Shown piece by piece: positions 2,873 through 56,684 of a stretch of DNA of 64,000 nt (position 1 is the first letter of the stretch; each line of letters begins with the position of its first letter). Made by a program: the position numbers and the translations under genes. Source of the DNA: Malacoraja senta. Taxonomy: Eukaryota. The notes beneath the pieces were generated by a model. That model was not told where the DNA came from. It made no database searches and worked only from the letters and a program-made list of their open reading frames with translations. The DNA lies in assembly GCA_038087875.1 (NCBI GenBank), contig CM075988.1:23252001-23316000 (forward strand), in the 5' to 3' direction.

Positions 2873-3011
2873 GTTTGAAGTCTGAAGAAGGGTCTCGACC
2901 CGAAACGTCGCCTATTTCCTTCGCTCCATAGATGCTGCCTCACCCGCTGAGTTTCTCCAGCATTTTTGTCTACCTTCGATTTTGCCAGCATCTGCAGTTC
3001 CTTCTTAAATG
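2873..3011 (+). mobile_element. Solo PLE terminus with intact hammerhead-like core (2882-2909), 12-bp TSD
   Basis: CTGAAGAAGGGTCTCGACCCGAAACGTC; TTATATTCCCCT on both sides. Confidence 0.8.
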
Positions 3012-3406: not shown

Positions 3407-4973
3407 GGGGTGGTGAACTTCATGCACTGCTTACGCTTCTGATGCACGGACTCAGGCTCAGGCATTTCTATGAGTCAATGATATATTGTATTGTATTTTT
3501 TCCAAGAGGGAGGCGTTGAGAACAGCCTTGTACCTTTTCCTCTTGGTAATACCTTCCCATGAGAAAGCACAGATTTGACAGATGGTTGCAGGAGACACCA
3601 AGATCTTCATATTGATATCTCTCCTCTGCTCGTTCAGTCCAGATGAAGAGTCCCAACACAAAATATGAACTGTCATATCTTCATAAGTGATAGGAGCAGA
3701 ATGAGACCATTCAGCCCATCAAGACTACTCTGCCATTCAATCATAGCTGATCTATCTTTCCCTTTTAATCCCATTCTTCTGCCTTCTCCCCATAACACCG
3801 ATACCTGTATTAACCATTTCCCTTCACGGATGCTTCTCAACACGCTAAGTTCCTCTTGCAGATTGTTGTTGATCCATATTCCCAAATACACACGAATGAA
3901 TGAATGAATAAGTTTATTGGCCAAGTATTCACATACAAGGAATTTGCCTTGGTGCTCCGCCCACAAGTGACATTACGACATACAGTAAACAATTAAGAAT
4001 AAAACATAAAACATTTAAAACATTAATAATAAAACATTCTAGTTTAAACATGAAATAAAATACCAGAGCATAAGGAGGCTACCTTTCAGCCAATTATTTA
4101 CCATTTGGAAAATCTAAACTTGACTATTAAAATCACGTTGAAATGTGTTGTGTGATTATCATCCCATTCTCTCCCTTCTGAGGGAATGTGGAGCTACACA
4201 ACTATTCCTTTTTAATTGCACTCTTGCCATTTGCTTGTGGAGGACGGGAACACCCAGAGAAAACCCACACACTCACAGGAAGGACGTGCAAACTCCACAC
4301 AGACAGCGCCCAGGGTCAGCGTTGAATCTGGGTCACTGCAGCAGAGTCAGTGGCTCAACGGACAACACCATTGTGGACTCTGAACAGGTACAACTAATCC
4401 CCCCCGGAGCTGTACAATTTCAGAGAACAATTAAGAATCACAATGTTTCAGGAAGACAGATTTCTTGCATCAGTGAAGCAGATGAATCTTTATAACAATC
4501 CAAACAGCCACTCAGAAACCAATGTTGTAAATTCCAGATTAATTTAATTGCCTTTATTTAATTTCCAAGACTACTTCCCTGCGATTCCCACTAACACTTT
4601 AACGTTTGGTCAATTCTGTTATTAATACGAAGACTGGTCGGGTGGCCTGCGGCCATTTGTAGGACAGGCCTGGTTCACCACTGCGGAGACGGCCCCAGTG
4701 GGCCGCAGCCTACAGGGGGAAGCTCGGAAGCACTGAAGACCGAAGAGTGGAGGGGGAGGGAACAGCTGGCGACAACGGACGAGATGAGTGGGCCGGTAGG
4801 GGAGTGACCAGGGTATTGCCTCCAGCGCCTTCAAGGTCGGCTGCAGGAGGCGTCCCCGGGACACAGAGGGGGTCAGGCGAGGAGAGGGATGTCGGGTCGT
4901 GGGCCTGCAGCCACCTGGGGCTCACCTGGATCGGGATGCTCTGGTACTCCCAGCACGAGGACTGGACTTTGTT

Positions 4974-6168
4974 CTTTCAGAAGGCTTTCTACAAGGTCCC
5001 ACATAAGAGATTAGTATGCAAACTTAAAGCACACGGTATTGGGGATTCAGTATTGATGTGGATAGAGAACTGGCTGGCTGACAGGAAGAAAAGAGTAGGA
5101 GTAAACGGGTCCTTTTCAGAATGGCAGGCAGTGACTAGTGGGGTACCGCAAGGCTCAGTGCTGGGACCCCAGCTATTTACAATATATATTAATGATTTGG
5201 ACGAGGGAATTGAATGCAACATCTCCAAGTTTGCGGATGACACATAGCTGGGGGGCAGTGTTAGCTGTGAGGAGGATGCTAGGAGGCTGCAAGGTGACTT
5301 GGATAGGCTGGGTGAGTGGGCAAATGCATGGCAGATGCAGTATAATGTGGATAAATGTGAGGTTATCCACTTTGTTGGCAAAAACAGGAAAGTAGACTAT
5401 TATCTGAATGGTGGCCGATTAGAAAAAGGGGAGATGCAACGAGACCTGGGTGTCATGGTACACCAGTCATTGAAAGTAGGCATGCAGGTGCAGCAGGCAG
5501 TGAAGAAAGCGAATGGTATGTTAGCATTCATAGCAAAAGGATTTGAGTATAGGAGCAGGGAGGTTCTACTGCAGTTGTACAGGGTCTTGGTGAGACCACA
5601 CCTGGAGTATTGCGTACAGTTTTGGTCTCCTAATCTGAGGAAGGACATTCTTGCCATAGAGAGAGTACAGAGAAGGTTCACCAGACTGATTCCTGGGATG
5701 TCAGGACTTTCATATGTAGAAAGACTGGATAGACTCGGCTTGTACTCGCTAGAATTTAGAAGATTGAGGGGGGATCCTATAGAAACTTACAAAATTCTTA
5801 AGGGGTTGGACAGGCTAGATGCAGGAAGATTGTTCCCGATGTTGGGGAAGTCCAGAACAAGGGGTTACAGTTTAAGGATAAAGGGGAAATTTTTTAGGAC
5901 TGAGATGAGAAAAACATTTTTCACACAGAGAGTGGTGAATCTCTGGAATTCTCTGGCACAGAATGTAGTTGAAGCCAGTTCATTGGCTACATCTAAGAGG
6001 GAGTTAGATGTGGCCCTTGTGGCTAAAGGGATCAGGGGGTATGGAGAGAAGGCAGGTACAGGATACTGAGTTGGATGATCAGCCAATGATCATATTGAAT
6101 GGTGGTGCAGGCTCTAGGGCCGAATGGCGTACTTCTGCACTTATTTTCTATGTTTCTATGTTTCTATG
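4974..6168 (+). mobile_element. 5'-truncated CR1 LINE (RT domain to 3' tail), premature stop after FADDT
   Basis: [36 protein letters not shown] (TAG 5245-5247), LVRPHLEYCVQFWSP, RVVNLWNSL; (TTTCTATG)n tail. Confidence 0.95.
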
Positions 6169-6469
6169 ACAACAACTCTTGTGCTACCAAAGCTTTCGGG
6201 GTGGTTTTCACACACACAAAAGTGACAACATGGAGACACAGGCCACTCGGCCCACCAAGTCCATGTTGACCAGCGATCACCCATTCATACTAATTCTATT
6301 CCTTATTCTAATTCCTCCCACATCCGCTCCCCACATACTGGGGGCAATTTCCGGAGGCCAATTAATCTACAAACCCGCACGTCTTTGGGATTTGGGAGGA
6401 AACCGGAGCGCCCGGAGAAAACCCGCGCGGTCAGAGAAACAGCGCGCAAACTCCACTCAGACACCACCG

Positions 6470-7080
6470 GGTGGCGCCAGCAATGCTGCCTCGCCAACAG
6501 TCTTCTCTGTTGTTTCTTTAGTATGTGCTAAATGTATGTTTTTAGTGTTCTTCAGCTTGTTTTATGTGGGGGGTGGTGGGGGGTGGTGGGGGTTGGAGGA
6601 GAAACTTTTTTTTTTAATCTCTTACCTCGACGGAGATGCGATTTTATTTCCGTATCGTATCTCTGTCCGCACTGCGGCCTAACATCGTGGGGCTGGAGGG
6701 CCGACTTCGGGAGCTCCAACCACGAGAGCCCGCCGGACTTAACATCGCGGAGCTCCCGATCCCTGGTTAGAGATCGACTTCGGAGGCTCAAAGTCACGGG
6801 ATCTTCGACGTCCCCGAAGCGGGGGCTTTGACCGCCGGCTGCGGGAGCTTCGATTGCCCCGACAGATGGTTCGACTGCTCCCACCGCGGGAGAAAAGTGA
6901 GGGAAGAAGATTAGACTTTATTGCCTTCCATCACAGTGAGGAAGGTGGGGAATCCGATGTGGTGGATGTTTATGTTAACTTTTATGTAGTTGTGTGTCTG
7001 TGTATGGCTGTATGGTAATGCGAATATCACTGTACCTTAATTGGTACACGTGACAATAAAAGACCGTGAAACCTTTGAAA
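6470..7080 (+). mobile_element. Non-autonomous GC-rich retroposon with Rex1/L2-like 3' tail, nested in a minus-strand HE1-like SINE
   Basis: SINE sequence breaks at ~6469 and resumes at 7081; ends GGTACACGTGACAATAAA plus short repeats; no credible ORF. Confidence 0.55.
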
Positions 7081-11779: not shown

Positions 11780-11954
11780 AAGGTAGACAAAAGTGCTGGA
11801 GAAACTCAGCGGGTGCAGCAGCATCTACAGAGCGAATGAAATGGGCAAACGTTGCCTATTTGCTTTTGCTCCATAGATGCTGCTGCACCCACTGAGTTTC
11901 TCCAGCACTTTTGACTACCTTTGATTTTCCAGCATCTGCAGTTCCTTCTTAAAT
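11780..11954. mobile_element. Fold-back PLE terminal unit inserted in CR1 fragment
   Basis: Inverted arms meeting at GGCAAACGTTGCC; TSD ACCTCCTCTGGCAA. Confidence 0.75.
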
Positions 11955-12289: not shown

Positions 12290-12589
12290 GGGTGGCACGG
12301 TGGCGCAGCGGTAGAGTTGCTGCCATACAGCGCCAGAGGCCAGGGTTCGATCCTGACTACGGGTGCTGTCTGTACGGAGTTTGTACTTTCTCCCTGTGAC
12401 CTGCGTGGGTTTTCTCCGGGTGCACCGGTTTACTCACCCGCTCCAAAGAAGTACAGGTTTGTAGGTTAATGGCTTGGTAAAATTGTAAATTGTTGCCAGT
12501 GTGTACAGGACAGTGTTATTGTGTGGGGATCGTTGTTCGGCGCGGACTCGGTGGGCCTGTTTCCGTGCTGTATCTCTAAACTAAACTAA
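12290..12589 (+). mobile_element. Full-length HE1-like SINE, followed directly by a PLE terminus (12590-12683)
   Basis: GGCACGGTGGCGCAGCGGTAGAG (A box), GGTTCGATCC (B box), (CTAAA)n tail. Confidence 0.9.
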
Positions 12590-13157
12590 GTCTGAAGAAG
12601 GGTTTCGGCCCGAAACGTTGCCTATTTCCTTCGCTCCATAGCTGCTGCTGCACCCGCTAAGTTTCTCCAGCATTTTTGTGTACCATGGATAATCACTAGG
12701 CAATCTGTCCTTTGTTATGTGGTAATGAGATGATTATTAGTTGGAGAGAATTTCACTTTCTCCTCTTTGAATGGTGCCTGGAGTCACTTAAATCTACTTG
12801 AAATAGTGACTGGTGTTTTCATTTGCTGTCTCTCTGCACTGACTCAAATAGTCGAACTAAGTTCTCAGCAGTGAACCCGCAGTCTCGTGACTCTGGAGTT
12901 GAGACATCGTTACCATAACGCTGCCAATACCGGAGGGCACAAATTATCCGAAGACTGGATAGACAAGGACAAAGTCCCCTGAAGCAAAGGAGGCTGAGGG
13001 GCGACCTCATAGTGTTTGAGCAATTGTTCAACAAGTACTCCCGCGTATATAATAACACTTTTACATTAATGAGAAAAATCCATAGGAATTTCATGGAACA
13101 TTATGAGGACTTATTTAAAACGTATTTTAAAAGCAGTCCTTTAAAAGCAGATGGGGA

Positions 13158-17983: not shown

Positions 17984-18320
17984 CTGGTGGCATTCCTGTA
18001 AATCTTCAACAGGCTGCTTTATCTATCGTAGAAAAGGCTAAATAATTGTTGTATGAAAGTGAACGATGCACATATATTTTCTCCGTAGCTGTTGGTAATC
18101 CTAAACTTGTCCCACCAGCCAGCAAGACAGCAGGCCTCCATTTAGCCAGGATTATCACGTAATTAGAGGTTAACCTGCGATGGGTGACTCACCTCCTCAC
18201 AACCCAAGGCCTTTAAACCACCCACAATGCAGAAGGCAGGAATGTGATGGGATATACATTCCCTTTGCCCAAAGCTATGAACTTTCTACAGCACTTGAGA
18301 AACTCAACGCATTCCAAAAC

Positions 18321-19570
18321 ATGGGTGAGACCAAGCGGAGGCTTGGCGATCGTTTCGCCGAACACCTCCGGTCGGTCCGCAATAACCAACTTGACCTCCC
18401 GGTGGCTCAGCACTTCAACTCCTCCTCCCATTCCGTATCTGACCTCTCTGTCCTGGGTCTCCTCCATGGCCACAGCGAGCAACACAGTAAATTGGAGGAA
18501 ATGCACCTCATATTCCGCTTGGGCAGTCTACATCCTGGGGGCTTGAACATTGAATTCTCCCAATTCTGCTAGCCCTTGCTGTCCCCTCCCCTTCATAGAT
18601 ACATAGATACATAGAAAATAGGTGCAGGAGTAGGCCGTTCGGCCCTTCGAGCCTGCACCGCCATTCAATACGATCATGGCTGATCATCCAACTCAGTATC
18701 CCGTACCTGCCTTCTCTCCATACCCCCTGATCCCTTTAGCCACAAGGGCCACATCTAATTCCCTCTTAAATATAGCCAATGAACTGGCCTCAACTACCCT
18801 CTGTGGCAGAGAGTTCCAGAGATTCACCACTCTCTGTGTGAAAAAGTTTTTCCTCATCTCGGTCTTAAAGGATTTCCCCCTTATCCTTAAGCTGTGACCC
18901 CTTGTCCTGGACTTCCCCAACATCGGGAACAGTCTTCCTGCATCTAGCCTGTCCAACCCCATAAGAATTTTGTACGTTTCTATAAGATCCCCTCTCAATC
19001 TCCTAAATTCTAGCGAGTATAAGCCAAGTCTATCCAGTCTTTCTTCATATGAAAGTCCTGACATCCCAGGAATCAGTCTGGTGAACCTTCTCTGCACTCC
19101 CTCTATGGCTATAATGTCCTTCCTCAGATTTGGAGACCAAAACTGTACGCAATACTCCAGGTGTGGTCTCACCAAGACCCTGTACAACTGCAGTGGAACC
19201 TCCCTGCTCCTATACTCAAATCCTCTTGCTATGAAGGCCAACATACCATTCGCTTTCTTCACTGCCTGCTGCACCTGCATGCCTACTTTCAATGACTGGT
19301 GTACCATGACACCCAGGTCTCGCTGTATCTCCCCATTTCCTAATCGGCCACCATTTAGATAATAGTCTGCCTTCCCGTTTTTGCTACCAGCCCTCTGGTT
19401 GCCTCCTCCCCTCCCCCAGCCCTCGGGCTCCTCCTCCGCCTTTTTCCTTTTTTCCTTTCTTCTCCCCACCCCCTATTAGTCTGAAGAAGGGTTTCGGCCC
19501 GAAACGTTGCCTATTTCCTTCGCTCCATAAATGCTGCTGCACCCGCTGAGTTTCTCCAGCATTTTTGTGT
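18321..19570 (+). mobile_element. Penelope-like element 3' part: GIY-YIG endonuclease C-terminus + 3' UTR with hammerhead-like core, interrupted by CR1
   Basis: GETKRRLGDRFAEHLRSV...VAQHFN...LEE.HLIFRLGSLHPGGLN* (stop at 18572); UTR resumes at ~19385; CTGAAGAAGGGTTTCGGCCCGAAACGTT at 19481-19508. Confidence 0.9.
18595..19390 (-). mobile_element. CR1 LINE 3' portion inserted in the PLE
   Basis: Minus-strand ORF with LVRPHLEYCVQFWSP...GYGEKAGTGY; (TATCTATG)n tail. Confidence 0.95.
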
Positions 19571-19609
19571 GCATTCCAAAACAGTCTGGCTGTTTGACTG
19601 ATGCCCAAT

Positions 19610-22695: not shown

Positions 22696-25600
22696 CTTTA
22701 ATCAACGCTAATGAATGTATGTGTAGCCGCTGAGAATGTAGGAAGAGATTTTGCACAGTTCTTGTTTTGTATATATTTTTTTTAATTCTGAATATAGTTT
22801 CAGTAAGTTTGTGAATGGCGACACCTATATCCCTGAGAAACTGGGCTTGAGACTTAATTGGGGAAAGAAACTGAGTAACTGCAGAGTGGCAGTGAGATTT
22901 ATAGGGAGATATTAAATGCAGATGAGAACATAGAGCATACAGTGGCAGAACAGGCCCTTTGGCACACGATGTCCGTGCCAAACATGAAGCCAAGCTAAAC
23001 TAACCTCACCTTCCCACACCCGATCTGCACCCCTCCATTCCCTAATCAGATCAAAGGATTCTGGAAATACTCCCAGGTTGGTTAGAGTATGTTGAGAGGA
23101 AAATTGAGTTAACATCAATAACCATTCATGAGAACTGGTCTTGAAAGAGAGGTAAGAGATTCTGCATAAACAAGTCTCGATCATTCATATCTCACATCTG
23201 TTGTAGCCTCGGGCATTGTCATTGAACTTTCAGAAGCTGGACACCAGCCCGCTGACCTTCTTGTTCTCCTGTGGACCTTTACCCACCTCCGAACATCAGG
23301 ACTTTATCCCCCAGGCAGTTAGTGAGCAGGTTTCATCAGAAGATCTTCCTTCCACAGCTTCTTCCGCAAAGCCACACTTCTCACCTCTATCTCCTCCCCG
23401 AGATCCACAGACAAGAGTCGCAGACGGCTGTGGAGGCCAAGTCATTGGGGATTTTTAAGGCAGAGATTGACAGCTTCTTGGTTAGTAAGGGTGTCAGGGG
23501 TTACAGGGCGAAGGCGGGTGAGTGGGGTTGAGAGGGAAGGATAGATCAGCCATGATTGAATGGCGGAGTAGATTTGATGGGCCGAATGGCCTGATTCTGC
23601 CACATCCACTCAGTCCCTTCATCTAATTCATGAACATGAATTGTAAATAGTTGAGGCTCTCCACTGATCCTGTGGTACACCTCATTAGTTGTAACTTGCC
23701 AACCTGGAAATGATCAGTCGAAATAAAGAACTGCAGATGCGATCTTTATATCAAAGATAGACACAATGTGCTGGAATAACTCAGTGGGTCAGGCAGCATT
23801 TCTGGAGATAAAGGATAAGTGACAATTCAGGTTGGGACCTTTCTTCACATTCTGAAGAAAGCCCTCGATCCAAAATGTCACCTATCATTTTTCTCCAGAG
23901 ATGCTGCCTGACCTGCTGAGTTACTCCAGCACTTGAAGTGATCAATTTATCTCAGCTCGCGATTTTCTCACTAATTAGCTAATTGGGAGTAAGGAATTTT
24001 GTAAACTTTATTCTTTACCCTTTGGATGCGTTTAAATCTTGTTTTAATCAGAACATTGGATAGTGGTTCAGCCATGCGAGGGGGATAATGGAGGCTGGCA
24101 ACAATGCAGATAAATATGACAGATTCAGCAATCACAAACAAGAGACCTCAACATTGTTTCCATAAATGACCTTTTGCTCCAATTTGCATTGCACTCCAGT
24201 AATCACGGGATAACTTAAGTGCTGGAGTCTCGTTAAGTAAAATATTAACAGCTTGATCCCAAATGGATGAGTTATTTAGTAATAATAATATGTATAAAAC
24301 ACTGAAAATTTGCCATCAACTGGTGATTACAAATATTCTGTTGCTGGCTTATACATTTATGATAATGGTCCCTGACATTGATTTGCACCTCTTTTATTCC
24401 CTCTGTAACTTCAAGTTAACTTGCCTTTCATTAATCTTGCTGTTAGGGCAATGCCTACACTTCTAAATAAACATAAGTGTTTTGACTGGATTATCTTAAT
24501 GATTGGAGATTCACTGACTTCCTTGTACAAACGATAGGAATGTTGAGTGGATTTTACCTCAGCGGTTTTATGCGGTGAAAATGCATTTGTTCAGGTAAGT
24601 GCACATTATTTAATGTCACTTTAATCTACAGCTCTAATCTATAGTTTGTTTTCAACGCCATATCTCTATTCATGAGTGAGATGCTTCCAGTCTTCCACAT
24701 TTTATCTCTGTTTTCTTTGTTGTTACCTTCTCCTAGCTAGCAATGATCTATTCTACATTTTCCTGCATCTCCATCCCCTTTGCCCCTGTTTTCCACCTTA
24801 CACTTCCTTATCTCTGTACCTCCCTCTCCCCTAACTCAATCTGAAGAAGGGTCTTGACCCGAAACGTCACCCATTCGTTCTATCCAGAGATGCTGCCTGT
24901 CCCGCTGAGTTACTCCAACAATTTACAGAAGCCAATTAACCTCCAAACCCACACGTCTTTGGGATGTGGAAGGAAATCGGACCACCCCCCCCCCCCAACC
25001 AGAGAAAACCCACACGGTCACAGGGAGAACGTGCAAACTCCATACAGACAGCACCCATAGTCGGGATCGAACCCGGGTCTTTGGCGCTGTAAGGCAGCAA
25101 CTCTACAGCTGCACCACCTTGCTGCCGACAGAGCTGCTGGCTCACAGCGCCTGAGACCCGTTCAATCCTGACTACGGGTGCTGTCTGTGCAGAGTTGATT
25201 CACACTGAAATCCTTATCTCTGTGCTTCAAATATTCTTGGCTCTCCGTCGGTTAACTTTTACTTTCATCAATGGGATTAACTGTTCTTTCAAAACTAATT
25301 GATGCAGATTAATTGTTGGCTGCTCTCCACTAACTCACAATTACTTGTCCTGTCCAGACAGTTTTTAAGCTTTCACTTGTCAGTCACAAAAATAACATTG
25401 TGTAAGAAGGAACTGCAGATGCTGGTTTAAACCGAAGATAGAGACAAAAATAGCTGGAGCAACTCAACGGGACAGGCAGCATCTCCCAGAGAGAAGGAAT
25501 GGATGACGTTTTGGGTCGAGACTCTTCTTCAGAGTCTAGATTATAAAAATAACATTGCTAGCCTGATTCACTGTCTGTCCTTTAGTTTCTTTAAAAAATA

Positions 25601-25828
25601 ACCGCATTGCGCTGGGAAAGGAAGCTTTCAGACCCATGCCATTAACCTGTCCACTGCCGAGTATTATTTTTCATTATTGGTCATGGCCCGAATATATTTG
25701 GGGTGAGGGTTGTGGCACTGAACAGGTTAATCTGCTTGTGTCTGGCTATCACGTCAATGGAGGAAAAGAAGAAGTTCATGGAGAAAAGGGACATGTTTTT
25801 GTGCAAATCTTCTCAAATTTCTTCTCAC

Positions 25829-26525
25829 GGGTCGATGGTTGAAAGGGTCAAGAGCTTCAAATTCCTGGGCGTGCACATCTCTGAACATCTCTCCTGGTCC
25901 GAGAACACTGATGCAATTATTAAGAAAGCACATCAGCGCCTCTACTTCCTGAGAAGATTACGGAGAGTCAGTTTGTCAAGGAGGACTCTCTCTAACTTCT
26001 ACAGGTGCACAGTAGAGAGCATGCTGACCGGTTGCATCGTGGCTTGGTTCGGCAACTTGAGCGCCCTAGAGCGGAAAAGACTACAAAAAGTAGTAAACAC
26101 TGCCCAGTCCATCATCGGCTCTGACCTCCCTTCCATCGAGGGGATCTATCGCAGTCGCTGCCTCAAAAAGGCTGGCAGCATCATCAAGGACCCACACCAT
26201 CCTGGCCACACACTCATCTCCCTACTACCTTCAGGTAGAAGGTACAGGAGCCTGAAGACTGCAACAACCAGGTTCAGGAATAGCTACTTCCCACAGCCAT
26301 CAGGCTATTAAACTTGGCTCGGACAAAACTTTGAACATTAATAGCCCATTGTCTGTTTATTTGCACTTGATCAGTTTATTTATTCATGTGTGTATATATT
26401 TATATAATGATATATGGACACACTGATCTGTTCTGTATTCATGCCAACTATATTCTGTTGTGCTGAAGCAAAGCAAAGAATTTCATTGTCCTATCAGGGA
26501 CACATGACAATAAACTCACTTGAAT
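25829..26525 (+). mobile_element. 5'-truncated Rex1/Babar-type LINE
   Basis: Same peptide as 292-796 with a 1-bp frameshift near the end; same 3' UTR. Confidence 0.85.
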
Positions 26526-27028: not shown

Positions 27029-27683
27029 AGCCCCTGTCCCACTTACGTGTCCTTGGCACGCTGATTACGCGACCTCGTGGTCCCGTTGAGGCACGACGGT
27101 CCAGCGAAGGTCGCGCGCGACTTCATGCGCCCGCACAGCCGTCTGGAGCGCGTGACGTCATTTGAAGATGGACACAAAATGCTGGAGTAACTCAGCGGGA
27201 CCAGCGGCATCTCTGGAGAAAAGGAATGGGTGATGTTTCAGTCTGAAGAAGGGTCTTGACCCGAAACATCACCCATTGCTTCTCTCCAGAGATGCTGCCG
27301 GTCCCGCTGAGTTACTCCTGCATTTTGTGTCTATCTTCAATTTTCTTGGCCCCGCTCTGGGAGTAGAAGTGGGGGCGGATCCGGACCGCAACGGCCGTGA
27401 GCCCCAGGCCGAGCTCGGCGATCGTTTGCCTGCTTCTGCTGCTGTTGGAGGTGAGACCTTGCTTCGCGCCAGGGTCTTGGGCCTGTCCCACTTTGGCCGT
27501 CAGTTACGCGACAGGCCATTGGCGCGCGAAGATTTTGTTCGCTACAAAAATGTCAGAGCCCCGCGCGATGCCGCACACAACTACATACCCCTCCGCGCTT
27601 TTCAGTGGGACCGGCCCCGCGCGGCCACACGATGCCCGTGCACCTCAATGCGACCACGAGGTCGCGTAATTTGAGACAGGCCT
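27029..27683. mobile_element. Harbinger-like MITE containing a fold-back PLE unit (27163-27340)
   Basis: Left end TTA-AGCCCCTGTCCCAC, subterminal IR ATTACGCGACCTCGTGGTC / GACCACGAGGTCGCGTAAT, right end GACAGGCCT-TAA. Confidence 0.7.
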
Positions 27684-32946: not shown

Positions 32947-33132
32947 GTAAACAAAGTGCTGGAGAAACTCAGCGGGTACAGCAGCATCTATGGAGCGAAG
33001 GAAATAGGCAATGTTTCGGGCCGAAACGTTGCCTATTTCCTTCGCTCCATAGATGCTGCTGCACCCGCTGAGTTTCTCCAGCACTTTTGTCTACCTTCGA
33101 TTTTCCAGCATCTGCAGTTCCTTCTTAAACAA
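32947..33132. mobile_element. Fold-back PLE terminal unit with 15-bp TSD
   Basis: Arms meet at GTTTCGGGCCGAAAC; AGTACAATTCTTTAG at 32932-32946 and 33133-33147. Confidence 0.85.
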
Positions 33133-35830: not shown

Positions 35831-36094
35831 ACATTGACCTGGGAGAGGAGGGGAAGGAGAAATGGCTTCACTTTATCCTGCCAATCAATTTGGAGAATTT
35901 CGCAGAGATAATATAGATGATACTTCATTAATGTCTTGAGATCCCTGTTGTAAAGTTCCAATATAGGAATGGTACTCTCACAGCCCTGGGATGAGAGCAT
36001 TGGTCTTAATGCGTATTGCTACAGCCAGTTCTAGATCACCTGCCTGGTCTGGTCGACACAAAATGCTGGAGTAACTCAGCGGGTCAGGCAGCAT

Positions 36095-38498
36095 CACCAG
36101 GGCCAGATAGGCTGCATCCCAGAGTACTTAAGGAAGTAGCTCCAGAAATAGTGGATGCATTAGTGATAATTTTTCAAAACTCTTTAGATTCTGGAGTAGT
36201 TCCTGAGGATTGGAGGGTAGCAAACGTAACCCCACTTTTTAAGAAGGGATGGAGAGAGAAAACGGGGAATTACAGACCAGTTAGTCTAACATCGGTAGTG
36301 GGGAAACTGCTAGAGTCAGTTATTAAAGATGGGATAGCAGCACATTTGGAAAGTGGTGAAATCATTGGACAAAGTCAGCATGGATTTACGAAAGGTAAAT
36401 CGTGTCTGTCGAATCTTATAGAATTTTTCAAGGATGTAACTAGTAGAGTGGATAGGGGAGAACCAGTGGATGTGTTGTATCTGGACTTTCAGAAGGCTTT
36501 CGACAAGGTACCACATAAGAGATTAGGATACAAACTTAAATCACACGGTATTGGGGGTTCAGTATTGATGTGGATAGAGAACTGGCTGCAAACAGGAAGC
36601 AAAGAGTAGGAGTAAACGGGTCCCTTTTCACAATGGCAGGCAGTGACTAGTGGGGTACCGCAAGGCTCAGTGCTGGGACCTCAGCTATTTACAATTTATA
36701 TTAATGATCTGGACGAGGGAATTGAAAGCAACATCTCCAAGTTTGCGGATGACACTAAGCTGGGGGGGCAGTGTTAGCTGTGAGGAGGATGCTAGGAGAC
36801 TGCAAGGTGACTTGGATAGGCTGGGTGAGTGGGCAAATGTTTGGCAGATGCAGTATAATGTGGATAAATGTGAGGTTATCCACTTTGGTGGCAAAAACGG
36901 GAAGGCAGACTATTATCTAAATGGTGGCCGATTAGGAAATGGGGAGATGCAGGAGACCTGGGTGTCATGGTACACCAGTCATTGAAAGTAGGCATGCAGG
37001 TGCAGCAGGCAGTGAAGAAAGCGAATGGTATGTTGGCCTTCAATAGCAAGAGGATTTGAGTATAGGAGCAGGGAGGTTCTACTGCAGTTGTACAGGGGTC
37101 TTGGTGAGACCACACCTGGAGTATTGCGTACAGTTTTGGTCTCCAAATCTGAGGAAGGACATTATAGCCATAGAGGGAGTGCAGGGAAGGTTCACCAGAC
37201 TGATTCCTGGGATGTCAGGACTTTCATATGAAGAAAGACTGGATAGACTTGGCTTATAAATGTGAGGTTATCCACTTTGGTAGCAAAAACGGGAAGGCAG
37301 ACTATTATCTAAATGGTGGCCGATTAGGAAATGGGGAGATGCAGCGAGACCTGGGTGTCATGGTACACCAGTCATTGAAAGTAGGCATGCAGGTGCAGCA
37401 GGCAGTGAAGAAAGCGAATGGTATGTTGGCCTTCATAGCAAGAGGATTTGAGTATAGGAGCAGTGAGGTTCTACTGCAGTTGTACAGGGTCTTGGTGAGA
37501 CCACACCTGGAGTATTGCGTACAGTTTTGGTCTCCAAATCTGAGGAAGGACATTATAGCCATAGAGGGAGTGCAGAGAAGGTTCACCAGACTGATTCCTG
37601 GGATGTCAGGACTTTTCATATGAAGAAAGACTGGATAGACTTGGCTTATACTCGCTAGAAATTTAGGAGATTGAGAGGGGATCTTATAGAAACGTACAAG
37701 ATTCTTATGGGGTTGGACAGGCTAGATGCAGGAAGATTGTTCCCGATGTTGGGGAAGTCCAGGACAAGGGGTCACAGCTTAAGGATAGAGGGAAAATCCT
37801 TTAAGACCGAGATGAGGAAAAACTTTTTCACACAGAGAGTGGTGAATCTCTGGAACTCTCTGCCACAGAGGGTAGTTGAGGCCAGTTCATTGGCTATATT
37901 TAAGAGGGAATTAGATGTGGCCCTTGTGGCTAAAGGGATCAGGGGGTATGGAGAGAAGGCAGGTACGGGATACTGAGTTGGATGATCAGCCAATGATCGT
38001 ATTGAATGGCGGTGCAGGCTCGAAGGGCCGAATGGCCTACTCCTGCACCTAATTTCTATGTATCTATGTATCTATGTATACTCGCTAGAATTTAGGAGAT
38101 TGAGAGGGGATCTTATAGAACGTACAAAATTCTTATGGGGTTGGACAGGCTAGATGCAGGAAGATTGTTCCCGATGTTGGGGAAGTCCAGGACAAGGGGT
38201 CACAGCTTAAGGATAAGGGGGAAGTCCTTTAAGACCGAGATGAGGAAAAACTTTTTCACACAGAGAGTGGTGAATCTCTGGAACTCTCTGCCACAGTGGG
38301 TAGTTGAGGCCAGTTCATTGGCTATATTTAAGAGGGAGTTAGATGTGGCCCTTGTGGCTAAAGGGATCAGGGGGTATGGAGAGAAGGCAGGTACGGGATA
38401 CTGAGTTGGATGATCAGCCATGATCATATTGAATGGCGGTGCAGGCTCGAAGGGCCGAATGGCCTACTCCTGCACCTATTTTCTATGTATCTATGTAT
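36095..38498 (+). mobile_element. CR1 LINE RT region with two internal tandem restarts, inserted in a PLE terminus
   Basis: [60 protein letters not shown]; restarts at ~37256 and ~38077; several 1-bp frameshifts. Confidence 0.95.
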
Positions 38499-46156: not shown

Positions 46157-47536
46157 TTACTCCAGCATTTTGTGTCTATCTTCTTTGTCACTGCGTTCGC
46201 CTGGTCATCGTCAGTCATTCGGTGAGGCTGATTCTAAAGACCAGGTGTTCCTTCTCCGCAGAGATGCTGCCTGTCCCGCTGAGTTGCTCCAGCATTGTGT
46301 GTCTTATTCTGCTGGCAGCAGGTCCCGGCACAAGAGCAGTAACACCAGGAAGCTCCCAATCTGGCGAGCTATTCATCACACCCCAGTCATTTACAGACCC
46401 CTCCACCTCTCGCTGTCAGCACCGTCCAGGGTACCATTAATTAGCAACGCCCCAGACTACTCCTGACCACATGATGGATAACCCCCTTGCTAATTTGCTT
46501 ATAACATTCAACATTAATTCCAGCATCTGCAGTTCCTTGTGTCTCAACATTAATTGCCAGGGGAAGCGGAGGCTGGGTTTGAACTTATTTTACATCTCTG
46601 CTTAGGGGGGGGGTGGATTCTTGCCGCTGACTATTTTTTTGTCCCACATGTTAATATCACCAGACGAAATGTGTAGGGAGGAACCGCAGATGCTGGTTTA
46701 AACCGCACATAGACCCAAAAAGCTGGAGTAACTCAGCGGGACAGACAGCATCTCTGGAGAACAGGAATGGGTGACGTTTCTAGTCGAGACCCTTCTTCAG
46801 AGTGAGAGTCAGGGGAAAGGGAAACGAGAGATATAGACGGTGATATATAGAGATATAGAAGAACTGAATGAAAGATATGCAAAAAAAAGTTACGATGATA
46901 AAGGAAACGGGCCTTAGCTGTGGGCTAGGTGAGAACAAGTTACAGACAATTGACACAAAGTGCTGGAGTAACTCAGCGGGACAGGCAGTATCTCTGGATA
47001 GGTCGATCCGAAACGTCACCCATTCCTTCTCTCCAGAGTTGCTGCCTGTCCCGCTGAGTTACTCCAGCATTTTGTGTCTATCTTGGCTGGAAACCAGCAT
47101 CAGTAGTTCCTCCCGACAGACAATAGAACTCACCAGAACAACAGTGAAACTAGTACAACGACTGGGAACTGTTCAGTTGTCACCGCCCACGGACTACAGT
47201 TCCCGCTCCCCTCTGTAAGGGGATAGTATCAGTCGCTGCTCCACCTCCCCTTCCAAGATATAGATGCCTGCTCTGGCCACGTTAATACATGGCAGCTGCT
47301 TGCCCGTCTAACACGGGCGAGTGCAGTGAGCATCGCCACGTTAATCAGAAGACAGACACAAAATGCTGGAGTAACTCAGCGGGACAGGCAGCATCTCTGG
47401 AGAGAAGGAATGGGTGACATTTCTGGTCGAAACCCTTCATTAGACTGAGAGTCAGGGGAAAGGGAAACGAGAGATATAGACGATGATTTAGAGAGATATA
47501 GAACAAATGAATGAAAGATATGCAAAAAAATAATAA

Positions 47537-53888: not shown

Positions 53889-54079
53889 GTTTAAGAAGGA
53901 ACTGCAGATGCTGAAAAATCTAAGGTAGACAAAAATGCTGGAGAAACTCAGCGGGTGCGGCAGCATCTATGGAGCGAAGGAAATAGGCAACGTTTCGGGT
54001 CTGAAGAAGGGTTTCGACCCGAAACGCCTATTTCCATAGATGCTGCCTCACCCGCTGAGTTTCTCCAGCATTTTTGTCT
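53889..54079. mobile_element. Fold-back PLE unit with 14-bp TSD
   Basis: ACCTACTTTATTAC on both sides; hammerhead-like core at 54001. Confidence 0.85.
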
Positions 54080-56684
54080 ACCTACTTTATTACAGTCCCT
54101 TCATAATCACTTTATCTCTTGTCAGCATGTAGGATGACTCAGGTTTCTTAACTACTTCTGAATCGAAGATGATTCAATCATGTGCTTTGGTGGTTTCAAG
54201 GTTAGAACATCCTCATCCTGGAAGATAAATCATTCAACAAGCTAATGTGCCTCAACAGCTGAATGTTTGGTGCTCAGAAGAATGCACAAGAGTCACAGTG
54301 AACAAGACAATGTGTGGGAGAGAGAGTGGGAGAAATTAAGGAAAAAAGAAAAAAATGAGAGAGAGAATTAATGTTATAGTCATAGAGTCATACAGCATGG
54401 AAACAGGTCCTTCGGCCCAACATGCCCACACTGACCAACATGCCCACTATATGCTAGTCACACCTGCCTGCGTTTGACCCATATCCCTCTAAACCTACCC
54501 TATCCATGTACCTGTCTAAATGTTTCTTAAACATTGCGATAGTACAGCCTCAACTACCTTCTCCAACAGCTTGTTCCATACACCCACCACCCTTTGTGTA
54601 AAAACGTTACCCCTCGGCTTCCCATTAAATCTTTTCCTCCTTGTCTTACACCTATGTTCTCTGGTTCTCAAGTCCCCTACTCTGGGCAAAAGACTCTGTG
54701 CGTTAAGTGTGCAGGATTGGGAGACAATTATAAAATGTGAAACAGAATGTATGACAATCCATACAAGGCAAGATTTAACATGGAAGCAGTGTACATTTAC
54801 AATAAAGCCAGTGTGACAAATGTATTTGAATGAGCATATATCACTTACAAGAGAGAGCTAGATAGGGCTCTTAAAGATAGGGGATATGGGGAGAAGGCAG
54901 GAACGGGGTACTGATTGGGGATGATCAACCATGATCACATTGAATGGCGGTGCTGGCTCCAGGGGCCGAATGGCCTACTCCTGCACCTATTGTCTATTGA
55001 GAACAACTTCAAAATAAAGCAACAATTAAAACAGGAGAAATTAGTATGAAAAAGATTTTTTTGTTACCAAGATTGAAAACGGCAAGAAATTTACTGCTGA
55101 ATAGAATTATGAATAATGTTTGGGAGTTGACCAGTCGCTAAGCGCTTCAGGGCTGAGATAATGAGTAATTAGTTTGCACTCACCTCAGTCTGAACAGTTT
55201 CCACAATCATGCTACATCATTAGAAGAGTGGGGAGGGAATGTGCTGATCACTCTCAGAGGACAGCTGGGAGAGTGTCACAAATCAATCTGGCACATAGTC
55301 TGCCATCACAGAGATAATCAGCAAGCATTGACACACTGATATGTAAATTTCTGCTTCATATAAAGGCTGCCCATTCTGGTTAATGAATCACACTGGGGAG
55401 CAAGAAGCATTCATTTAACCATGAAAGTCGTGGGTCATACTGTATTCCATAGGTGGCTCCGTTTAATTAACGCACGGGGCGGTATGATTCCAGGTATATG
55501 GTGGGAGGGTGGGACGTATACAGAGCGCTGGTCAGCACGGATTTGGTGGGCCGAAGAGCCTGTTTCCACGCTGTATCTCCAAACTAAACTGAACGACTGT
55601 GTCGGGATGGGATGGTGTGAAGTGGAAGCCATTCACATGCCACAGGAACAAACACAATCAGGATCCCTGTTCTACCTGGTCATGAGTCTGAGTAACAGTT
55701 CAGAGCCTTGAGGGCAGACTCCTGGCAGCAGATCACTCAAACTCTCCAGATACTGTCCAGAAAAAATATATAGAACTGAGACAAACATTAGAGGAGACAA
55801 CTTCAAAAATAGAAATGTTTTGCTCCAAAAACCAGAGAACGAATGAAAGCAATCCATAAACTGTTAATTTCTGCTTTCATCTTGTTGCCCTTGTGATGCT
55901 TACCGCATTGGAACACGCATTATATTCCATCAGTAACATGACAATCCCCCCCCCAAGGGAAAGAGGAATGCCAGACATCAGTGAGTCCCTTTATACTCAT
56001 ATCATGGTGGCAGCAAATCCAGGGATTTATTGAGGGCTGGTACAGTGTCATTGCTGATGAACAGATCACACTGTGTCGATTTGAAGAACATCAACATGTT
56101 CAATTAAGTTTTGTGCTTTCAAATAAACTCAAGATCACTTTTAACAAAATGTCAGCAAACCTTTAAACATGCGCCATCTTCAACCAAATCAGCAGTGAAG
56201 CCACCTCGATTATTTCTTATCCGAATGAGAGTCCAGATCCAAAACACTGCCTACCCAAAACATTTAAGAAGGAACTGCAGATGCTGGAAAAATCAAAGGT
56301 AGATAAAAATGCTGGAGAAACTCAGCGGGTGAGGCAGCATCTATGGAGCGAAGGAAAAGGTGACGTTTTGGGTCGAGACCCTTCTTCAGACTGTCTGAAT
56401 GTGGCCTAACCTGCTGAATTCCTCCAGCACCTTATGTTTTCCTCAAGATTTCAATACCTGTGGTTCCTTGTCATAGTTGGTCATACAGCTCAGAAACAGA
56501 GCCTTCATCCCAAAAGTCCATACCGACCAAGATGACCCATCTACGCTAGTCCCACCTGCACGCATTTAGTCCATAACCCTCCAAACCTTTCCTATCCAGG
56601 TATCTGTCCAAATGTTTTAAAATGTGTGTCTCTCCATTAGTTCTTAACTGAACTGAAGATGTACCCATCATTAGGTGCAGTTCC

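Follow-up and report, generated by a model that had tools for sequence, protein, structure and literature searches.

A minimal type I hammerhead in the terminal repeat of a truncated Neptune-type Penelope-like element in Malacoraja senta and the ends of its copies

The locus and its hammerhead motif

The question raised by this locus is what a short sequence, built like the core of a hammerhead ribozyme and amplified across the surrounding DNA, does for the element that carries it, i.e. whether it cuts, in which RNA it would do so and which traces this leaves in the copies. The DNA analysed, called the window hereafter, is a stretch of 64,000 nucleotides from Malacoraja senta, and no host gene was identified within these 64 kb. 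The locus is the 5'-truncated 3' end of a Neptune-type Penelope-like element (PLE), whose parts are given below; element positions are counted from C3 of the hammerhead core.

18309..18321 (+): left target-site duplication of 13 bp, the last bases of which overlap the element start; the same 13 bases stand at 19571-19583
18319..18572 (+): end of the PLE frame, i.e. the last 83 endonuclease codons and the stop, aligning to the full-length copy L023 from -371
18573..18596 (+): beginning of the PLE 3' UTR, which in sister copies runs directly into 19388 onward
18597..19387 (-): secondary insertion of 791 bp, the 3' end of another repeat, with an open frame of 259 aa
19388..19478 (+): rest of the 3' UTR, pyrimidine-rich, ending in a YAGT common to the subfamilies
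19479-19510 (+): minimal type I hammerhead, predicted from sequence, descriptor match and published consensus
19479-80 with 19509-10 (+): hammerhead helix I
19481-87 (+): hammerhead core, followed by an extra A at 19488
19489-500 (+): stem II, followed by GAAA at 19501-04
19504-07 (+): stem III, palindromic and loopless, with the predicted cut after 19508
19509..19570 (+): downstream portion of the terminal repeat, reaching as far as the nearer of the two preferred 3' ends
19571..19583 (+): right target-site duplication

The initial annotation had placed the motif in the 3' UTR behind a GIY-YIG ORF. An endonuclease end is indeed present and agrees with the corresponding part of other copies at 94-100% identity (97.6% DNA identity to L023 over 18319..18572), but it comprises only 83 codons, lacks the GIY-YIG motif and found no match in Pfam. 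Likewise, the motif does lie in the 3' UTR, which is however broken by the 791-bp minus-strand repeat. This insertion is absent from the sister copies L002-L010, is repeated elsewhere at 79-87% and found no Pfam match either; we take it to resemble a CR1-type LINE. The YAGT preceding the core would appear to be initiator-like.

The motif was found at 19481-19508 exactly as it had been written. CUGANGA, GAAA and UH are all present in type I order, as are the extra base between positions 9 and 10.1, the G10.1-C11.1 pair and stem II, whereby the palindromic 15.2-16.2 reads ACGU and loop 3 is absent. Helix I comprises 2 bp, the 4 bp of stem II are closed by four loop bases, and stem III consists of ACGU without a loop. 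The 2-base loop formerly assigned to stem II is sterically implausible, hence the reading of 4 bp closed by a 4-base loop is the better one, and helix I, formerly given as GU/AC, is GU/GC in this copy. As stem III is loopless, a monomer cannot fold it, whereas two copies can share it, and the need for a dimer or a trans partner, as claimed earlier, is thereby supported.

The consensus of PLE minimal hammerheads, as given in the available part of the report on metazoan PLE pseudo-LTRs (Cervera and de la Pena 2014, PMC4209133), consists of CUGANGAH, stem II, GAAA, a palindrome and UH. The motif agrees with this consensus and further shares with the published class the extra base 9/10.1, the G10.1-C11.1 pair, the missing loop 3, the palindromic CG, the short helix I and the mostly solitary copies, so that its association with a PLE terminal repeat is, as had been stated, not new. 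The A at position 7, the extra A and the 2-bp helix I had been called peculiar; all three occur in PMC4209133 and represent the norm, CUGAAGA occurring 30 times in the accessible portion of its supplementary file 2 and a 2-bp helix I being listed for Culex, Drosophila virilis and Oikopleura. As compared to the published examples, the 4 bp of stem II and the 2 bp of helix I are each at the short end. Judged by its sequence, the motif belongs to the known class of PLE minimal type I hammerheads. In an Rfam scan of the window, 18 matches were obtained at E up to 1; none was to a hammerhead family, and the microRNA-like matches among them were rejected as candidates, being inverted pairs of the hammerhead-plus-tail unit.

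The parent element and its abundance

A protein search of the genome yielded 80,921 first-look candidates, and the copy L023 was found to carry the whole 1213-aa frame, a single frame with the reverse transcriptase (RT) followed by a C-terminal GIY-YIG, as in endonuclease-positive PLEs (RVT_1 at E 1.4e-4 and GIY-YIG at E 1.4e-3, both below the Pfam cut-offs). The linker between RT and endonuclease reads CX4CX2C. According to the available part of Craig et al. 2021 (PMC8557442), a CX2-5CxxC linker is the mark of Neptune and is shared with Nematis; a Neptune-type assignment fits the frame, resting on a linker that Nematis also possesses. Further likenesses to the Neptune PLEs described there are the domain order, partial tandems, inverted 5' copies, an optional tail of 30-40 bp and target duplications, and partial tandems forming pseudo-LTRs, inverted 5' copies and the optional tail were all found in the skate element. 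At E up to 1e-30, 908 protein relatives with RT annotation were identified, and no match to the element protein was found among solved structures. As compared to the relatives listed, which measure 667-1130 aa at 41-55% identity to the L023 frame, the 1213-aa frame is distinguished by a long proline-rich stretch. This stretch, at about residues 190-510, contains short repeats and differs in length from copy to copy (spacing of 3.9-4.3 kb), and most of the relatives listed are about 300 aa shorter than the L023 frame. As a side observation, L103, L104 and L107 represent one full-length insertion with an identical flank on three contigs, i.e. a segmental duplication or an assembly duplicate, and this flank contains a minisatellite and a GC-rich promoter-like stretch.

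In the window, a strict pattern matches exactly at four positions (2882, 12592, 19481 and 24841), as compared to none in 100 shuffles. The recurrence claimed for the plus strand holds for 1110, 15286, 27243 and 54001, each with point changes, and that for the minus strand for 27775, 33390, 46800, 56389 and 61612, again with point changes. A profile of the 88-base unit detects 56 pieces in the window, only 4 of which keep the whole core, and 243 pieces in 60 evenly spaced 10-kb stretches of the genome; extrapolated, and if this sample is typical, about 8e5 pieces per genome would result. A structural RNA descriptor gave 38 hits in the 600 kb sampled and 0-3 in ten Markov shuffles. Across the complete 1.94-Gb assembly, the intact-core pattern occurs 56,799 times without mismatch, its reversed control not at all. 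For coelacanth and Xenopus, about 4,000 and about 9,000 copies are given in the available part of PMC4209133, a comparison across differing methods, and up to 120,000 retrozymes are given for the axolotl in that of PMC7229834, so that the count obtained here is no record for hammerheads in general. For the known class, the motif means one more host and a very high copy number. Representative copies of the window are as follows.

2879..2977 (+): solo copy of hammerhead plus tail, the core of which is intact; it begins 3 bases upstream of that core and has a 12-bp duplication
12589..12681 (+): solo copy of the young subfamily to which the finding copy belongs, likewise with the core intact and a start 3 bases in front of it
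24820..24924 (+): member of an older subfamily that keeps the whole core
32953..33098 (no strand assigned): two units joined head to head in inverted orientation, with the fold-back point inside stem II; one of many
11780-11921, 27162-27340 and 53923-54083: further head-to-head inverted pairs

The head-to-head pairs, together with a further one at 46949-47081, are long hairpins with weak microRNA-precursor scores in Rfam and would be possible sources of double-stranded RNA if transcribed. The solo copies at 12589, 15280 and 29761 stand directly behind the end of one other repeat with a short A-rich microsatellite, which suggests an insertion preference. Other LINE-type retroelements are represented by fragments with RVT_1 and ALKBH8_N matches at 4663-6682, 36010-36609, 155-796 and 25646-26311.

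Ends of short copies and joints of full-length copies

From 299 profile hits 284 were scored, of which 266 passed the identity and length filters. Their 3' ends are bimodal, lying at +80 to +99 in 136 of 265 copies and at +115 to +129 in 80 of 265, whereby the second end is the known optional tail. At the opposite side, 92 of the 157 copies reaching the core stop at -5..+1, the density of 5' ends being 13 per base at this edge and 2.2 per base at +4..+45. At the predicted cut site no excess of copy starts was found in the 266-copy sample (6 vs 6.5 expected), which counts against an explanation by cutting. The edge is likewise seen genome-wide in the young subfamily, where 19,101 matches decrease to 13,305, 7,186 and 5,596 when the pattern is extended by 3, 7 and 21 bases upstream; per added base, 11-14% of the matches are lost as far as the seventh and 1.8% beyond it, whereby part of the loss between -3 and -7 comes from related subfamilies with another upstream sequence. 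Duplications of at least 8 bp flank 13 of 41 young solos and 11 of 1640 control pairs, and solos flanked in this way are therefore separate insertions. This copy-end pattern, which had been missed in the first reading, is more informative than the motif itself. Contigs of four runs, the RNA type of which is guessed, contain loose ends 2-7 bases upstream of the core whose flanks are mixed, thereby echoing the solo copies, and on the 3' part of the element they list no joint at the AG (6 joints not shown); such contigs cannot show starts, ends or strand and were not counted as evidence.

A fixed 5' edge could be a mechanical hotspot, where the near-palindrome TCAG-T-CTGA or a bound protein would cause the cDNA to fold back or drop off, or where copying would start on antisense RNA, antisense templating having been proposed in PMC3846280. 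An inverted arm does occur in 119 of the 266 copies (both arms counted), perfect palindromes centred on the edge site exist and the edge is spread over 7 bases, each of which a hotspot would accommodate. Yet 55 of the 96 copies starting at -6..+1 are devoid of an inverted arm, full-length copies pass the same sequence without stopping, and G exceeds A directly before AGT (2016 vs 1672, i.e. 55% vs 47% expected). This excess fits a copied cap, although fold-back arms could give the same. The flanks of the 55 armless copies are unrelated, 2 of them being pyrimidine-rich as compared to 28 of 33 in long copies. With these data, a hotspot is regarded as improbable. As an observation of its own, the close opposite-strand hammerhead pairs at L154-L164 are mostly a 5'-truncated copy with its inverted arm, head to head.

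The pyrimidine tract and YAG before the core invite another explanation, namely that they form a 3' splice site and that splicing supplies a longer helix I. The pyrimidine share upstream is 0.82 in long copies, a donor-like AAG/GTATG overlaps the start codon, the first ATG of the L023 5' UTR, and in Drosophila Penelope an intron ends at helix I (PMC4209133, in its available part; PMC2377424), which provides a precedent for splicing. What a common splice event should leave behind is however missing: the short copies have no common upstream exon, just 5 of 1485 pairs being alike (another repeat or a local tandem), and a frame-skipping junction has 0 matches in the genome. Splicing is accordingly held to be very improbable.

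A different picture was obtained for full-length copies, for which 30 loci holding the frame start (the first 30 of the 40 best matches, 28 of them independent) were considered. Here, 22 of the 30 run seamlessly through the hammerhead into an upstream 3' end and one more does so with a deletion, whereas 7 begin inside the motif or the tail, 3 of these sharing one flank. Starts at -5..+1 or at the cut site were found in 0 of the 28 independent full-length loci. A stop at -5..+1 is thus seen in 92 of 157 sampled copies vs 0 of 23 full-length ones (Fisher p 1.3e-8), and within the young subfamily (A) alone in 6 of 14 sampled copies vs 0 of 23 (p 0.0013). Short copies that stop before the core and full-length copies that read through it likely go back to two kinds of RNA template, and this contrast narrows the models to two, i.e. 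copying of a circle or a jump of the RT.

Twenty of the 30 loci were fetched whole, and at 15 of them both PLE terminal repeats hold a hammerhead, the two being 3.9-4.3 kb apart. Within 13,422 bases, 11 private variants were found to be common to both repeats of one insertion, while cross-locus control pairs share 3 in 187,866 bases; 6 of the 15 tandem loci contribute to these variants and 9 show none, and 9 of the 11 lie upstream of the core. Both repeats of one insertion were therefore likely copied from one template copy, although gene conversion or assembly smoothing may also account for the shared variants.

According to the jump model, which involves the same element and the same RNA start and dispenses with cutting, the RT copies a linear RNA as far as its 5' end and then switches to the matching 3' repeat of that molecule, templates lacking a second repeat yield solos or fold-backs, and the hammerhead serves as a protein-binding fold or a rarely used switch. 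Read-through, the shared private variants upstream of the core and the solos are explained equally well in this manner, and the absent excess of starts at the cut site, the insertion of the Anolis Poseidon element PAc from uncut RNA, as reported in the available part of PMC11167929, and fold energies disfavouring the active fold (see below) all speak for it. The jump would however have to succeed in 23 of 23 cases, and the catalytic positions, UH and the palindromic stem III are kept across subfamilies and animals, none of which a mere binding site needs. Overall, the jump is considered a possible explanation, albeit one to which we would commit only tentatively.

A retrozyme-like arrangement was identified at L153:2718-7730 (G000:C1:28902217-28907229), where 13.1 units of 384 bp, each with an intact hammerhead, form an array flanked by an 11-bp duplication, 11 of its 12 whole units being identical. 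The unit is a PLE monomer whose frame was deleted at a short microhomology, and the deletion junction has 12 matches in the genome, all at this locus. As proof of a rolling circle the array was rejected, the junction being limited to one locus and local expansion fitting equally. The read-through, the shared private mutations and the array fit both circle copying and a jump back on one RNA.

Proposed mechanism, known systems and constraint on the motif

The reading that we lean towards, as somewhat the better supported account, is that the locus is a truncated Neptune-type PLE end whose hammerhead would cut solely after the pairing of two copies within a single RNA, aided by protein. It is favoured over the jump because the catalytic bases are kept. 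In this mechanism, reverse transcription would start inside the tail, as was shown in vitro for PAc. RNAs starting at the initiator-like TCAGT, 3 bases before the core, and containing one hammerhead would stay uncut and would be copied to their 5' end, giving solos of 95-130 bp or fold-back palindromes. RNAs from partial tandems would contain two hammerheads about 4 kb apart, which would pair via ACGU/ACGU and then cut, and the cut RNA would close into a circle to be copied for more than one round. Cutting and circle formation are the least certain step. Neither the finding copy, which stands alone, nor the rest of the dispersed copies is likely to be active, and both would be by-products.

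A model of dimer cutting and circles has been proposed before in PMC4209133, the available part of which describes monomers as inactive and dimers as weakly active, and the PAc hammerhead was reported to cut only with protein (Frangieh et al. 2024, PMC11167929, likewise in its available part). Against cutting, the same portion of PMC11167929 reports that PAc hammerhead mutants still inserted in vitro and that no reads end at the cut site, and the accessible part of bioRxiv 10.64898/2026.07.22.740005 reports that 8 of 9 Xenopus dimers stayed uncut in vitro. A bolder joint reading, in which uncut lone-hammerhead RNAs gave hundreds of thousands of solos while dimer-cut RNAs closed into circles whose repeated copying gave the seamless partial tandems and their identical private mutations, and a deleted circle of 384 nt gave the 13-unit array within one insertion, is put forward with considerable doubt; if true, it would provide genomic support for rolling-circle copying of PLEs and present a retrozyme caught at birth.

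PAc resembles the skate element in that two internal RT starts define the tail, that uncut RNA is copied and that the hammerhead is located at the junction of repeat and frame, as far as the available part of PMC11167929 goes; it belongs to another clade and its frame begins in stem II, whereas the first ATG lies 163 bases after core C3 here. Non-LTR retrozymes share the type I hammerhead and a proposed origin from PLE ends (PMC7229834 and bioRxiv 10.64898/2026.07.22.740005, in their available parts), the latter, whose supplements include one cartilaginous fish, arguing for this origin. In the portions of these sources available, the retrozyme unit measures a few hundred bases, carries a hammerhead and is arranged in tandem, whereas the finding locus is a single truncated copy; tandem units with whole hammerheads were found solely at L153, which differs from retrozymes in being a plain internal deletion of the skate PLE at one locus only. 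The accessible portion of supplementary file 2 of PMC4209133 contains no shark, Callorhinchus or Leucoraja entry.

Earlier publications already cover the hammerhead class and the dimer idea as well as tails, inverted arms and solo repeats. In the literature searched, nothing was found on the M. senta PLE family, the fixed 5' edge or the shared private variants, which Lunse et al. 2017 (RNA Biol) and older papers may cover, the former reportedly dealing with dimers of PLE hammerheads. The young family offers ready substrates for dimer cleavage and circles, since its identical cores number about 19,000, full-length copies are present in intact form and a 384-nt tandem occurs naturally.

The constraint on the motif was assessed within and between subfamilies. 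For covariation, 64 copies chosen from 127 full-coverage ones, plus the window copy at 24841, were aligned, whereby 89.7% of the helix cells of the 64-copy set are paired (94.8% in stem II). The pairing of stem II had been described as kept between variants, yet the change concerned is one-sided (U-A to U.G) and not compensatory, and the observed covariation score was reached by 483 of 500 shuffles, there being only one-sided changes and copies too alike. Between the subfamily majorities, core and stems differ at 0 of 18 non-CpG positions as compared to 14 of 54 in the tail (p 0.015, post hoc); p amounts to 0.27-0.50 with CpG sites included and to 0.095 when one varying stem II position is counted. 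Among dispersed copies, decay is similar in core and tail (6.1% vs 7.6%).

Folding predictions gave -6 to -7 kcal/mol for the double-hammerhead fold vs -21 to -44 kcal/mol for rival dimer folds, the former thus being 14-37 kcal/mol less stable, and monomers are predicted to fold into a hairpin that buries the core. With the active fold disfavoured and the core buried, activity would therefore need help, as it does for PAc. Folded as single strands, the sequences showed no unusual stability (z -0.40 to +1.06). In the predicted folds of 19485-19520 and of the sister copies, a pyrimidine run just after the cut site pairs with the 5' half of the core, which is rich in purines; this pairing recurs in all subfamilies folded, at a level not above shuffles, and might possibly act as a built-in off state.
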